Of a stretch of 64,000 nucleotides of DNA, positions 33,332-37,446 are shown piece after piece; position 1 is the stretch's first letter, and every line of letters starts with the position of its first letter. Made by a program: the position numbers and the translations under genes. Origin of the DNA: an uncultured Fibrobacteraceae bacterium (lineage in GTDB: Bacteria; Krumholzibacteriota; Krumholzibacteriia; LZORAL124-64-63); NCBI GenBank assembly GCA_964437115.1, contig CAYTFE010000002.1, positions 65,262-129,261 of the forward strand, in the 5' to 3' direction. Below the pieces are notes generated by a model that was not told where the DNA came from, ran no database searches, and saw nothing but the letters and a program-made list of their open reading frames with translations.

Positions 33332-34276
33332 CTAGTATCGCATCTCTATAGAAAAACGGTGTGAAGGATCCAAGTCGTTGATCATATCTTCAAAAGCATA
33401 ACCAACTATCATTTGCCCTCTGGTAAACCCTGCACCAGCGGTAAAACCTTGTGACTTATAATTAATCTTGGTCCCTGCTCTCAAAGCCAACACCGAAAAG
33501 ATTCTATATTCAGCACCAATATGTGCCTTCTCATTACCATCGTTTGGAACGACTACATCGCCAGCAATAGTCATACTACCTAGAATATCATATCCGAATC
33601 CAATTCTCAGTGCAGTTGGCAATTTATATGGTTCAGCATCCAGAGTTATATCTGATCCCATATTCGTCAACGATGCGCCAAACCATAAGCCATCAACAAT
33701 GGCTTTGTGTGCCAAAGAAAAATCAAAAGCAACTCCGCTGCCACCATAAACATCAATTTCTTCATGCAGGAATTTAACAGTTAATCCTGCAGCCAGTGCA
33801 TCTGTAATTGCCCTGGAATATGACAAACCAATTGCAACCTGATAAGGATTAAAGCTGCCTTCCTGGATTCCCACTGGCTCTTCTCCATATCGACCGATAT
33901 CATCAGAATAAATACCGGAGAATATGAATCCAAAATTGCCTAAAGAGTTACGATGAGAAACCAATAGTGTTTCTTTGTCAAAAAGACCTAACCAGCGCTG
34001 ATGCTGCAACAATAAGTCAGTTCCAGTCTCTTCAAATGCAGCCAACGCAGGATTCCAGAATACTGTTGATGCACCTGTTGCCGACGCAACGCCCGCACCG
34101 CCCATCGCAGTTTCTCTTGCTCCCACAGGTAAACGCAGGGAAAGAAAACCAGACTCTCCAGGCTCACCAGCTTCAGCTTGTACAAACGGAAGTACTACTA
34201 CAACTAACATAAGCAATGCAATGAAAGAATCTTTACTTCGAAACATCTCTATTCCTCTCTTAGGTTGCCAGTTCAT
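33332..34276 (-). CDS. PorV/FadL-like outer-membrane beta-barrel protein.
   Basis: 314 aa with a signal peptide. The N-terminal ...GARETAMGGAGVASATGASTVFWNPALAA... motif is shared by PorV/FadL-type transporters. Alternating beta-strand pattern, and the sequence ends in an aromatic residue. It overlaps the stop of the upstream CTD-protein gene by 4 nt. Confidence 0.45.
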   Translation of the reverse strand: MNWQPKRGIEMFRSKDSFIALLMLVVVVLPFVQAEAGEPGESGFLSLRLPVGARETAMGGAGVASATGASTVFWNPALAAFEETGTDLLLQHQRWLGLFDKETLLVSHRNSLGNFGFIFSGIYSDDIGRYGEEPVGIQEGSFNPYQVAIGLSYSRAITDALAAGLTVKFLHEEIDVYGGSGVAFDFSLAHKAIVDGLWFGASLTNMGSDITLDAEPYKLPTALRIGFGYDILGSMTIAGDVVVPNDGNEKAHIGAEYRIFSVLALRAGTKINYKSQGFTAGAGFTRGQMIVGYAFEDMINDLDPSHRFSIEMRY

Positions 34277-37200
34277 CGAGCAACCGCTACAGATTTAACT
34301 AAAACCTTAATGTCATCACCACTGCTGGCAATTACACGACACACATACAACCCGGAAGCGATATGGTCAACAACGAGTTCAACTTCCACAGGTTCAACAC
34401 CAATTACATTTCGCACATCACTACGAGCAACTTCTTCACCTTCAAGGTTGTAAAGCACAGCCTGGAAATCACACTCGCCCAATGACTCTGCTCTCACATA
34501 TAAAGTACCCGATGTTAATGGTGATGGGTAACAAACAACTGATCCCAATTCAATTAAACCATCACCAGTGCTTGTGGTATCAGCTATGAATCCATTTCTT
34601 GTTGGACAGCCTCCAGACATTGACCACTTACTCGAATAACCATCTGTTCCTGTTATCCTGTAAAACATAAGCCTTGAAACAGGTTCCCCATCAAACTCAT
34701 CATCAATTGCAGCAGACAATCTATTTGTAGCACCTGCAACAATTAATTCCAAAACAGAATCTGAATCTATATCTACAAGCACAGCAGACCCCGCTGGAGT
34801 GCCAGCACCTGCCAGCGGCCAGCCATCAACCAGTCCTCCATACTTATCATACAAATACAACCTGCCGTCACTGCTAGTAAATAACACAAAATCATTTCCA
34901 GTTGGATCAGTACAAACCAAAGGAGTTGGAGAATTATCAGAATTAGTTGCGGTTATTGCTGATTTTGGACGAGCTGGCCATCCAGCCTGAAAGTGACCAC
35001 TCTGACCTGTTGAGGCAAAAACATCGTTGCTTGTGAAAAACAAACCTGGTGCAATTGCGGAAGCAGCATCAACTCTGTTATCCCATAGAACAACTTCCTG
35101 GAGATTATCTTTAAAGACAGTAGCCAATGCTCCTTGGGCAAGAGGGATAAACAGCTGTTCACTATTGCAATACATATGGAAACCGGAAACTTCTGCCGGC
35201 AAATCAAGTATATAGTTTTCTTCAGGCCTGCAAATTAACACTGAGCTTCCTGTTTCCTCATCAGAAATCGGCAAAACAATGTAATCATCCCAAAGGACTG
35301 GCGGAACTTCAGTAACAACGCCAGCTGGCATTATCAACGACCACAAACTTTCACCATCGTGTCCAACTATCAATAACCGATATTCATCTGATAATTCCTG
35401 ATACTCAACTACAATAATTGAACCAGTATCAGTTAACACTGGAGGCAATGGACAGTCATCCATTTCGTATAAGAGTGTCCACACACCCTCTCTATCAAAA
35501 ACAAATAAACCTGCATTCGATGACAACACAATCTCCGAGTATCCGTCATTATTATAATCACCAGCTGCCGGTGATCCCGACCAGGAGACCTCTTCATCAT
35601 TTATATCATCAACAGTTACAGTGAAATATTCAGAACCGTCAGCATTGAATGCATAAATGGTATTGCTGGCAGCAGCAACTATTTCAAGAGTTCCATTATT
35701 ATCGAGATCAACTGCAAGCAGATGACATCCAGACAAATCAATTCCTGGCATTTGTATATCACTGACTAATTCGATTGGAGAACCTGTGCTGACAATTGAA
35801 CAATTAAATGTCATCGAATCAGCCAGAGCAGAAATATCGTCAATTACAATTCCGGTTCTAACTCCCCCAGCGGTATTTGTATTGGGAAGAGTTTCCGGCG
35901 TAAAAGCGGAATAATCTTCCTGTCGATAACTGTCATAATCGCCACCCAGAACATAGATCCCTTGCATAGAATCCATATCCTGAATCCCGTCAGCCTCTTC
36001 CAGGTCAACTGCTTTGCGCTGGGCATCTCCATTGAAAGCACTACTTCCTGACTGAATAGTATTGTTGATTACCCATTCATCGATATGCCAGATATAGATT
36101 CCACTGCCAGCACCTTTTACTCCTTCAGGCCTCCCTGTATTATCACTCATGAAGAAATCAAATTCACTGCCAACAAGTGTTTCTATTGAATCTTCGGTTG
36201 CATCAAAAAAGTGCTCTCCCCAAGTGGGTATTCCTCCAGGCTCACTAACATCATAAAAATCAGGAATCCCATTGCTGTTTTTGTCGTCGCCAAATGAGAA
36301 GATTCCATTGTCATCAGGATCTTGCAATCGATATTCCAACAGAAAATATTCGCTGCTGGAAATTTCAACTCTGGCACATGTGTTAACTCCTGGATGCTCT
36401 GCTGGAAACAGACAGAACAATTCTTCAACCTGATTTGGGAGAACAGAGTAAGGTTCGAGCCAACCCATAAGAACTTTATTGTAAGCACACGGATGGGAAG
36501 GGATTAGGCCACCACCCAAAAACAATCCATAGCCCATTAATCCATAATTACCGATTCCGGCACTGTCAGGGCTGCCTCCTGGAGTTGGATCAAAGAGAGG
36601 TAACATCCCCAGCCTTTGTCCAAACACAAAACAGTAAACGCCAAGTGATCCAGTTGGACCGCCATAAGGATGATTAAAATCCTGAAACTCATATTCGGGT
36701 AAAACCAAAGCCTTGTTAACAACTACGCCATCAGCTGTTTCAATCCAAGGTTGAATTAAAATTGTATCATCATACGCTTCTTCAAAATCAGCTTCACCAA
36801 GATAGCTACTATGTATCTGCCCAGGGGAGTCACCATTTACATCGGTTTCTTCACCAGCATCAGCATGCACAAGAACCACTGTGTCATAATTTGAAAAATC
36901 AACATATTGATCTAGAAGCTCAACAGTATGCTGAACTAGGAGGAATCGTTGTTCTCCATCATCAGGATGATTGCCATACCATTCCATGTCATATGGCAAA
37001 TTTGCAACAGTTCCGCAAACATCATAATCAAGAGTAAATTGGTTTCCACTTACTTCATCAAAATATGTTGCAACATTAGCAAATTGGTTCCCATAGTATA
37101 GAGAGTCATGAGCTGTATAATAAAAATCACCATAAGGATTCAGTAGGAGATCCGGATCCATTTCATCCCATTGACCATAAAACTTGTAGTCTTGAAAATC

Positions 37201-37446
37201 ACACATCAGAATAATTGCATGGAGTGAGTCAGGAGCACTGCGTCCATTCAATCTCTTTTGCTGAACAACTGAATGATTACCCTGCCAAAGTTTTTTACCT
37301 ATATCAACTTTTGTGGAGAGTTCAACCCTATCTACTGATTTATTCAAAAGATCATCGGGACTGACAACCTGAGCTGATACTACAGGTTTAACCATTAAAG
37401 CTATAATAATTACTTGTATCGATAAAGTGAGGAACTTCCTCAACAT
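34273..37446 (-). CDS. Large secreted protein with a degenerate M6 (InhA-like) metallopeptidase domain lacking HEXXH, FG-GAP/VCBS-like repeats and a T9SS-type CTD.
   Basis: The probable true start is the internal Met (MLRKFLTLSIQVIIIALMVKPVVSAQ, signal peptide). Around FVFGQRLGMLPLFDPTPGG...IGNYGLMGYG...AYNKVLMGWLEP the sequence aligns with the M6 zinc-site region, but HEFGH is replaced by FGQRLG. Repeats are DLDNNGTLEIV, GDYNNDGYSEIV and DIDSDSVLELIV. The C-terminus ...VCYPSPLTSGTLYV...ASGLYVCRVIA... is a Por-type CTD. Confidence 0.5.
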   Translation of the reverse strand: MLRKFLTLSIQVIIIALMVKPVVSAQVVSPDDLLNKSVDRVELSTKVDIGKKLWQGNHSVVQQKRLNGRSAPDSLHAIILMCDFQDYKFYGQWDEMDPDLLLNPYGDFYYTAHDSLYYGNQFANVATYFDEVSGNQFTLDYDVCGTVANLPYDMEWYGNHPDDGEQRFLLVQHTVELLDQYVDFSNYDTVVLVHADAGEETDVNGDSPGQIHSSYLGEADFEEAYDDTILIQPWIETADGVVVNKALVLPEYEFQDFNHPYGGPTGSLGVYCFVFGQRLGMLPLFDPTPGGSPDSAGIGNYGLMGYGLFLGGGLIPSHPCAYNKVLMGWLEPYSVLPNQVEELFCLFPAEHPGVNTCARVEISSSEYFLLEYRLQDPDDNGIFSFGDDKNSNGIPDFYDVSEPGGIPTWGEHFFDATEDSIETLVGSEFDFFMSDNTGRPEGVKGAGSGIYIWHIDEWVINNTIQSGSSAFNGDAQRKAVDLEEADGIQDMDSMQGIYVLGGDYDSYRQEDYSAFTPETLPNTNTAGGVRTGIVIDDISALADSMTFNCSIVSTGSPIELVSDIQMPGIDLSGCHLLAVDLDNNGTLEIVAAASNTIYAFNADGSEYFTVTVDDINDEEVSWSGSPAAGDYNNDGYSEIVLSSNAGLFVFDREGVWTLLYEMDDCPLPPVLTDTGSIIVVEYQELSDEYRLLIVGHDGESLWSLIMPAGVVTEVPPVLWDDYIVLPISDEETGSSVLICRPEENYILDLPAEVSGFHMYCNSEQLFIPLAQGALATVFKDNLQEVVLWDNRVDAASAIAPGLFFTSNDVFASTGQSGHFQAGWPARPKSAITATNSDNSPTPLVCTDPTGNDFVLFTSSDGRLYLYDKYGGLVDGWPLAGAGTPAGSAVLVDIDSDSVLELIVAGATNRLSAAIDDEFDGEPVSRLMFYRITGTDGYSSKWSMSGGCPTRNGFIADTTSTGDGLIELGSVVCYPSPLTSGTLYVRAESLGECDFQAVLYNLEGEEVARSDVRNVIGVEPVEVELVVDHIASGLYVCRVIASSGDDIKVLVKSVAVAR

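Follow-up and report, generated by a model that had tools for sequence, protein, structure and literature searches.

A conserved M6-like protein without its zinc site, encoded beside a PorV/PorQ-family barrel gene in a Krumholzibacteriota-type genome

The sequence considered here (hereafter the window) is a stretch of 64,000 nucleotides from contig CAYTFE010000002.1 of an uncultured Fibrobacteraceae bacterium (assembly GCA_964437115.1). Its subject is a gene whose product, named M6i for M6-like inactivated metalloprotease, combines an N-terminal domain related to the M6 (InhA) peptidases, an FG-GAP beta-propeller and a putative C-terminal sorting domain (CTD) of a type IX secretion system (T9SS). 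Its open reading frame (ORF) starts with an ATG at 37446 and stops at 34273-34275, and an in-frame TTG is present further upstream at 37518. The predicted signal peptide was identified by eye: its n-region is basic, its core is hydrophobic, and cleavage would fall at a VSA-Q motif. The parts of M6i and the genes and elements around it are given in Table 1.

Table 1. Location of M6i, of its predicted parts and of the neighbouring genes and elements (window positions; aa, amino acids)
Feature	Position	Strand	Basis or remark
M6i gene (M6-like inactivated metalloprotease / FG-GAP propeller / T9SS-CTD protein)	34273..37446	-	ORF including stop codon; 1057 aa
Predicted Sec signal peptide (aa 1-25, MLRKFLTLSIQVIIIALMVKPVVSA, cleaved before Q)	37372..37446	-	Read by eye from the sequence
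M6/InhA-like domain (aa 73-556): catalytic-domain homologue and subsequent InhA-like region	35779..37230	-	hhalign aa 73-367; NF052323 aa 111-554; Foldseek match to InhA2 4yu6
Former zinc-binding motif FVFGQRLGMLP (aa 273-283)	36598..36630	-	hhalign column alignment; family column counts
Met-turn Met (M304 in GLMGYG)	36535..36537	-	Aligned to WSLMSGG of InhA2; invariant in family
FG-GAP beta-propeller (aa 557-965)	34552..35778	-	Pfam FG-GAP_3; model; Foldseek
Putative divergent T9SS type-A CTD (aa 966-1057)	34276..34551	-	Por_Secre_tail below cut-off; family-level support
PorV/PorQ-family outer-membrane beta-barrel gene	33332..34276	-	NF033709; downstream of M6i
DUF4384 protein, 553 aa	37719..39380	-	Pfam DUF4384, 45.9 bits; upstream of M6i
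Probable lipoprotein, about 297 aa, lipobox ISGC	39405..40298	-	Signal peptide from ATG 40298; ORF extends to ATG 40379
Sigma-54-type -24/-12 element TGGCACATTACCTGCA	40824..40839	-	One mismatch to TGGCAC-N5-TTGCW
Sigma-54-dependent transcriptional activator, 1036 aa, long N-terminal sensor region	41047..44157	-	NCBIfam families, E down to 1e-90, aa 720-1033

The link between M6i and InhA was obtained with NCBIfam profiles, with profile alignment by hhalign and with a fold search; when the PDB was queried by sequence, neither M6i itself nor the profile of its family yielded a meaningful match. The NCBIfam model of the M6 domain (TIGR03296) matched aa 80-375 with an expectation value (E) of 2.6e-20 and 73.5 bits, below its cut-off of 110.8, and the profile hidden Markov model (HMM) NF052323 matched aa 111-554 on its positions 82-548 of 1043 (E 1.1e-59, 202.3 bits, cut-off 600). 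The Pfam model Peptidase_M6 (PF05547) gave no match to M6i at E <= 1 and was weakly matched in just 2 of 41 relatives. Four genuine M6 proteins were retrieved from public plasmids using as a probe a short InhA motif: InhA2 of B. thuringiensis, and three from Pseudoalteromonas, Streptomyces and Clostridium that are annotated as "immune inhibitor A domain" proteins. These have in common an invariant H-E-x-x-H-x-L-G-x-x-D, and a profile built from 89 M6i homologues was aligned with them by hhalign on 261 columns (probability 94.7%, E 6e-8).

Structure models were produced with AlphaFold. The full-length model (predicted local distance difference test score, pLDDT, 86.2; predicted template modelling score, pTM, 0.84) contains an all-beta region at about aa 557-965 with pLDDT > 90, and its Foldseek search was swamped by beta-propellers (BamB, BBSome subunits and WD40 proteins, E down to 1e-13), so that the N-terminal part (aa 56-556) was modelled separately (pLDDT 85.3, pTM 0.89). 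The sole strong PDB matches of this second model were to the B. anthracis InhA2 zymogen (4yu6, E 2e-12; 4yu5, E 3e-10; probability 1.0), the next ones being other metzincins, such as fragilysin, at E > 0.03. M6i has an InhA-like M6 fold, and the relationship is far beyond chance. The initial annotation, made from the sequence alone, had proposed such a domain and had named profile alignment and structural modelling as the means of checking it; TIGR03296, hhalign and the InhA2 fold match all bear it out, the first at a score under the curated cut-off and with PF05547 silent. The FG-GAP repeats that it had read downstream were likewise recovered, both by Pfam FG-GAP_3 (43 bits, cut-off 26.9, aa 580-640) and by the propeller fold found with Foldseek.

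In M6 peptidases two histidines bind the zinc and the glutamate is catalytic, the third ligand being an aspartate in thuringilysins (PMC12237041). The hhalign register places GSLGVYC-FVFGQ-RLGML-P-LFD of M6i opposite the HEXXHXXGXXD region of InhA, and YGLMGYG opposite WSLMSGG. The first zinc-binding histidine is thereby aligned with F273, the catalytic glutamate with V274, the second histidine with Q277 and the third ligand, aspartate, with P283, while the methionine of the Met-turn is retained as M304. No HEXXH or HXXXH occurs anywhere in the M6i protein, and none of the 120 homologues listed contains HEXXH. As read from these columns, M6i has lost all three zinc ligands together with the general-base glutamate.

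The peptide quoted in the initial annotation, FVFGQRLGMLPLFDPTPGGSPDSAGIGNYGLMGYG...PSHPCAYNKVLMGWLEP, corresponds to aa 273-332, and its statement that the catalytic histidines and glutamate are replaced agrees with the hhalign and family columns. Its pairing of HEFGH with FGQRLG was correct as to the replacement and off by two residues as to the register, HEFGH being aligned with F273-V274-F275-G276-Q277. The canonical HEXXH that it allowed might lie elsewhere in the domain was not found, and the flanking motifs that it described as conserved, including the Met-turn, are so in the family columns. A disulfide between C272 and C320 was considered as a replacement for the zinc and was rejected, as no co-variation between these residues was seen in the superfamily.

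Homologues of M6i numbered 371, of which 120 were listed; these are mostly of about 1100 aa, are 36-89% identical and, where a source is named, are labelled Krumholzibacteriota, Krumholzibacteriia or plain "bacterium", few of them being named. Loss of HEXXH, for which inspection of orthologues had been suggested, is common to them, with mostly F-E-L-S at the site. The family consensus at the former active-site helix and beyond it, GSLGVYCFEVGLRLGMLSLSDFTPxGxPDSQGIGEFGLMGYGLF, is almost invariant, and aa 268-297 form the best-conserved 30-aa segment of the whole protein (majority fraction 0.93). Over the block of aa 255-332 the majority fraction is 0.85, against 0.50 in the propeller and 0.57 in the CTD, and the Met-turn methionine is invariant both in the 121 homologues and in all 142 sequences of the superfamily tree described below. 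The column of the HEXXH glutamate holds Glu in 112 of 121 homologues and Val in 9 of 121. Since it is Val that is found in the window protein and in its closest relatives P0001 and P0002, even this glutamate is dispensable; the window clade, with P0003, also has its own variant of the block (GQRLGMLPLFDPTPGG.PDSAG). The possibility of a decaying relic domain was rejected, because no other stretch of the protein is as well conserved as the former active-site block among more than 120 homologues. Judged from this conservation, the dead cleft of M6i is under strong purifying selection.

A wider family was obtained by an exhaustive search of the N-terminal domain against 1.8 billion cluster representatives, which returned 2081 relatives at E <= 1e-3, of which 144 reached E <= 1e-30. 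Of the best 150 of the 2081, most are 1000-1150 aa long, and a CTD-like ending, ...K/R-x-A-(V/I)-x-(K/R), is shared by many. When the site is written as four letters (first His, Glu, second His, third-ligand Asp), the intact state HEHD is found in 29 sequences, including four outgroups, FELS is the Krumholzibacteriota-type consensus and FVQP is the state of the window clade; HEHT, HQHT, HMRS, LMFA, LLSS, ACND, YQLP and HEQP also occur in the superfamily. These states were mapped by Fitch parsimony on a rough neighbour-joining tree of 142 superfamily sequences rooted with InhA. The root was reconstructed as active, with at least 15 changes of site state. The window clade lies within a large inactive clade whose sister is a HEHD clade, and NF052323 stands on another branch, with active enzymes between the two. 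On this tree the window clade seems to have been inactivated independently of NF052323.

The gene order around distant relatives was then compared with that of the window. In L090, P0190 has the intact site HEFGHLLGLPD and is found in the order sigma-54 activator, lipoprotein, 202-aa gene, DUF4384, M6, barrel, LpxH-like gene (opposite strand), p122, M23 and amidase, which is the gene order of the window; in L089, with P0161 and again an intact site, the order is activator, lipoprotein, DUF4384, M6, barrel. Because such zinc-site-intact relatives occupy the same gene order, M6i is best read as the catalytically dead counterpart, probably an orthologue, of an enzyme whose zinc site is kept elsewhere. 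Five further loci have an M6 or M6-like gene followed by a barrel-sized gene (about 300-360 aa). The latter matches PorV/PorQ-family models in L086 (P0165, HQFGH) and L088 (P0158, HMxGR), matches Pfam UPF0164 in L091 (P0137, HEIGQ) and L092 (P0138, YQVGL), and is similar to the barrel of the window in L093 (P0174, HEFGH with Thr for the Asp). L085, the locus of the NF052323 member P0255, encodes PorU (Peptidase_C25), PorV (272 bits, cut-off 250), M6i, a Tricorn/TolB-like propeller protein and DUF5683, and the JGI contig of P0232 (inactive, LLSS-type site, 499.7 bits on NF052323) encodes PorV, M6i, a Tricorn-like protein and two DUF5683 proteins. A PorV-family barrel is paired with the M6 or M6-like gene in all nine of the more distant subfamilies examined, and this pairing is independent of the catalytic state.

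In four of the distant subfamilies the pair is directly followed by a gene for a very large subtilisin-like S8 protease (mycosin/PrtP-like, 1000-1460 aa, sometimes with FG-GAP), located at 5849-8935 in L086, 8781-12374 in L089, 6751-10682 in L091 and 9070-13144 in L093. The window has no such gene there: its pair is followed by the LpxH-like gene, on the other strand.

In a scan of one genome per species, 80 loci were kept, each from a different assembly. These are labelled Krumholzibacteriota or Krumholzibacteriia, "uncultured Fibrobacteraceae" metagenome-assembled genomes (MAGs), one Latescibacterota and one Gemmatimonadales. M6i is encoded once per assembly among the 80, and the barrel gene directly follows it in 66 of the 66 loci with room for it. 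In the window the listed ATG of the barrel gene overlaps the M6i stop (ATGA) and an alternative ATG at 34246 stands behind the Shine-Dalgarno-like AGAGAGGAA, so that the gene begins 0-27 nt past the M6i stop; the start at 34246 appears the more likely of the two. The barrel matches NF033709 (PorV_fam) with 157 bits (cut-off 90), in a sequence search of the PDB it matches only PorV of F. johnsoniae (6h3i_F, E 6e-8), and the NCBIfam model "putative type IX sorting system protein PorV2" is weakly matched by the partner barrels.

Where the contigs are long enough, the recurrent order is activator, lipoprotein, DUF4384, M6i, barrel, LpxH-like (opposite strand), p122, sigma factor and M23, with p122 and M23 not detected in a few of the loci; the envelope-gene neighbours of M6i are the lpxH-like, sigma factor, M23 peptidase and amidase genes. 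The lipoprotein has no family match in Pfam or NCBIfam, and its position is conserved in related loci. The DUF4384 gene keeps its position in the related loci that reach it and in the zinc-site-intact loci L089 and L090, and hence adjoins both active and dead M6 genes. Its product contains an unusual segment rich in Tyr, Trp and Pro (...YYPVYYYVDPWTMRPWVNYWYNPWYYWPSSGYAWGWDYYAWNY...), followed by a basic low-complexity tail of about 200 aa rich in Ser, Lys and Arg.

The sigma-54 activator gene is conserved upstream of the cluster in related loci. The element TGGCACATTACCTGCA is located 208 nt past the activator stop, and an equivalent site is found 209-290 nt past the activator gene in most loci. 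Sites with at least 8 of 11 consensus matches were present in 49 of 60 loci, against 2 of 60 on the reverse strand and 3 of 60 in shuffled sequence. Because a sigma-54-type site is conserved at the same place across loci, the lipoprotein, DUF4384, M6i and barrel genes are proposed to form a sigma-54-dependent operon.

Between this putative promoter and the lipoprotein start lies a non-coding leader of about 520 nt (40299..40823, minus strand), conserved in sequence only in the closest loci, L005 and L006, although a comparable spacing is found in many loci. It has no Rfam match, and a small ORF or known RNA within it was not supported, as there is no protein-level conservation beyond the two closest loci. 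A second sigma-54-like element with one mismatch, TGGCACAATAGATGCA (40334..40349, minus strand), precedes the lipoprotein start codon (ATG at 40298) by about 36 nt. L005 is the only locus in which it is conserved, and it was not taken to be the promoter; it may have arisen by chance or be an additional promoter specific to the lineage. Just upstream of the large activator gene lies that of another sigma-54 activator, an NtrC-type response regulator (44613..45974, minus strand).

For the C-terminus of M6i, PF18962 (Por_Secre_tail) was matched at E <= 0.01 by 11 of 41 relatives and TIGR04183 by 5 of 41. When a CTD profile of the family was run over all ORFs of the window, its best match other than itself was the C-terminus of the 992-aa protein encoded at 10438..13416 (E 0.0017), a protein whose own Por_Secre_tail passes the threshold. 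In the full-length model, aa 971-1055 form a beta domain with pLDDT > 90. The invariant CTD residues of the family are P974, P976, G1003, G1032 and Y1034, and they fall on YPxP and GxY, the hallmarks of type-A CTDs. The family-level matches and the C-terminal position give weak but consistent support to a predicted divergent type-A-like CTD at the end of M6i; the T9SS CTD of the initial annotation is accordingly faint in the protein's own sequence and in keeping with the family. Beside YPxP and GxY the family CTD has a near-invariant pair of cysteines (C972 in 111 of 121, C1036 in 118 of 121), which may form a disulfide that stabilises a retained, uncleaved CTD.

Elsewhere in the window, a 780-aa protein (2559..4901, minus strand) matches the CTD end of T9SS_PorZ (NF052228) with its last 100 aa (40 bits, cut-off 260) and has a weak Sortilin-Vps10 propeller match, which makes it a candidate PorZ-like T9SS surface protein. 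Just upstream of it, on the same strand, are three large genes (4972..7497, 841 aa; 7498..10248, 916 aa; and that of the 992-aa protein); the 841-aa and 916-aa proteins have no Pfam or NCBIfam match, and the three genes may be a block of uncharacterised T9SS cargo.

Taken together, these results make it reasonably probable, in our judgement, that M6i is a non-catalytic surface protein which leaves the cell through the T9SS and docks on the barrel encoded beside it. M6i would be exported by Sec and then translocated by the T9SS, and would stay on the cell surface with its CTD bound to the dedicated barrel, by analogy with PorU on PorV and PorZ on PorQ. In the former active-site cleft a peptide or some other ligand of the envelope would be bound without being hydrolysed, and the propeller would offer a further surface for binding. 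The genes of the lipoprotein, the DUF4384 protein, M6i and the barrel would be transcribed together, starting at the conserved sigma-54 promoter and controlled by the activator encoded nearby. A T9SS context is provided in the window by another validated CTD protein and by the protein with the PorZ-type CTD.

Several points weigh against this. The CTD scores of M6i itself are low (14.2 bits where the cut-off is 23, and 14 bits where it is 27, in the two CTD models PF18962 and TIGR04183), and no core T9SS gene (SprA/Sov, GldK/L/M/N) was seen within the window. The barrel scores below the PorV and PorQ equivalog cut-offs and is thus bona fide neither the one nor the other. Much of the extended synteny could reflect shared ancestry in one phylum rather than functional coupling, and so well conserved a cleft would be equally compatible with some unrecognised chemistry that does not use zinc. 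Finally, the surface localisation, the CTD retention and the barrel contact are points that we infer by analogy.

Adhesins are generally multi-copy, variable and mobile. A surface adhesin or receptor, as proposed in the initial annotation, was the first alternative considered; an external substrate or another cell would then be bound by the dead protease and the integrin-like propeller, with the barrel as a mere secretion shuttle. In its favour are the FG-GAP propeller, the secretion signals and a conserved cleft that agrees with ligand binding, and genetically linked shuttle-cargo pairs are documented for adhesins with type-B CTDs in Flavobacterium (PMC12618676). M6i is nevertheless encoded once per assembly in the loci kept, has motifs that are near-invariant at 36-45% overall identity, and holds a fixed place among envelope housekeeping genes (lpxH-like, sigma factor, M23, amidase). 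We therefore regard an adhesin as unlikely: found once per assembly in those loci, conserved, paired with a barrel and set in a fixed neighbourhood, M6i resembles a constant component of the cell surface, or one associated with the T9SS, more than it does a variable adhesin.

Such a component could also be part of the T9SS attachment and sorting machinery itself, that is, a PorZ or PorU analogue presenting cargo C-termini or the anchor glycolipid to the sortase, its active M6 ancestor having been, maybe, a CTD-processing peptidase. This is suggested by L085 (Ignavibacteria-type), where an inactivated M6 gene is directly downstream of porU and a bona fide porV, by the PorV-family pairing in nine distant relatives as well as in the window's family, and by the weak matches of the partner barrels to the PorV2 sorting model; the succession of peptidase fold, propeller and CTD also recalls PorU and PorZ (PMC12365241). 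Yet M6i has no sequence similarity to PorU or PorZ, the window has a separate protein with a PorZ-type CTD, the porU-porV adjacency was found in one locus only, and a dead peptidase cannot itself be the sortase, so that we hold this role to be rather improbable. An M6i that is still an enzyme, using a new catalytic or metal arrangement of other conserved residues (C272, E274 in most relatives, H113/D114, H454), would agree with the former active-site block being the best conserved, with the Glu kept in 112 of 121 homologues and with the many invariant acidic and His residues elsewhere in the domain, but is very improbable given that this Glu is lost as well in the window protein and its closest relatives (V274), that C272 is Ala, Val or Thr in the wider inactive clade, that M6i has no alternative HExxH or HxxxH, and that active M6 enzymes are the source of several conserved residues, among them the HAGxGxE motif.

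With M6i still read as a non-catalytic, barrel-docked surface protein, a broader and more doubtful proposal can be put forward tentatively. The M6 or M6-like propeller-CTD protein and the PorV-family barrel might form an ancient, uncharacterised T9SS accessory module present across Krumholzibacteriota, Ignavibacteriales/Bacteroidota and others. Its ancestor would have been an active, barrel-docked surface metalloprotease, possibly one that processed cargo, whose site was lost repeatedly and by different routes, with the cleft remaining under strong selection. If this were true, the essential role of the module would be binding or scaffolding, as for PorZ, and not proteolysis. That one gene order can contain either an intact or a dead M6, in every case beside a PorV-family barrel, amounts to a natural experiment in how an enzyme turns into a binding module, and points to a possibly unrecognised and widespread T9SS-associated surface complex outside the well-studied Bacteroidia. 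For annotation, a "hypothetical" or "M6 family metalloprotease-like protein" becomes a defined pseudo-protease for which a defined partner gene and a likely regulator can be named, and surveys of the secretome or degradome in Krumholzibacteriota-type MAGs should leave M6i out of their protease counts.

At a greater distance from M6i, the window also encodes a fused protein with B12-binding, MeaB GTPase and methylmalonyl-CoA-mutase parts (IcmF-like, 1070 aa; 47592..50804, minus strand).

M6i was finally compared with known systems. With InhA/InhA2 and PrtV (MEROPS family M6, "thuringilysins"; 4yu5/4yu6) it shares the fold, the Met-turn and the flanking motifs GxxGV..., LG.P, IG.WxLM and the HAGxGxE block; it differs from InhA in that HEXXHXXGXXD is wholly replaced and in that its C-terminal region consists of an FG-GAP propeller and a putative T9SS CTD. 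The C-terminal region of InhA2 presumably comprises VEG and MAM domains. P0190 and P0161, the zinc-site-intact proteins of L090 and L089, are of the same length class as M6i and have the M6 domain, the FG-GAP, the CTD-like end ...A(V/I)xR and the same neighbours, but they keep HEFGHxLGLPD, match Pfam Peptidase_M6 strongly and are about 30% identical to M6i.

In T9SS attachment in P. gingivalis, PorU (peptidase fold) is held by PorV and PorZ (beta-propellers) by PorQ, both being CTD cargo (PMC12365241). M6i resembles these pairs as a large protein with a peptidase fold, a propeller and a putative CTD, encoded beside a PorV/PorQ-family barrel, its own pairing being known from genes; no homology of M6i to PorU (C25) or PorZ was found among the NCBIfam and Pfam matches or in the PDB sequence searches.

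The closest catalogued relatives are the proteins of NF052323, from Ignavibacteriales and Bacteroidota-type MAGs, a family to which NCBI curators independently gave the name "T9SS-dependent M6-like inactivated metalloprotease". Like M6i, they have about 1000-1150 aa, a signal peptide, an M6-like domain without HEXXH, FG-GAP and a T9SS type-A CTD, the last being putative in M6i, and their genes adjoin a PorV-family barrel gene. The true member P0255 scores 773.8 bits, and its relatives, from Ignavibacteriales and "Bacteroidota bacterium" MAGs, carry FG-GAP and Por_Secre_tail. The active P0161 scores 246 bits, more than the window protein, and the 41 M6i relatives all score similarly to the latter (best E 6e-63). 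Only the N-terminal half of M6i aligns with the model, without end-to-end collinearity over its 1043 positions. The site columns, A-C-N-D in NF052323 with the third-ligand Asp kept, are F-V-Q-P in the window protein and F-E-L-S in most of its family; and the barrel of NF052323 loci is a true PorV, encoded upstream and, in L085, beside porU, whereas that of the window is an unclassified PorV/PorQ-family protein encoded downstream. No paper describing this inactivated M6-like family was found in the literature. The kind of protein is already catalogued through the curated HMM NF052323, and JGI calls some of the homologues "M6 family metalloprotease-like protein"; what is new here is the barrel pairing, the sigma-54 context and the existence of zinc-site-intact counterparts in the same gene order, and recurrent loss of the zinc site belongs to the same wider pattern.

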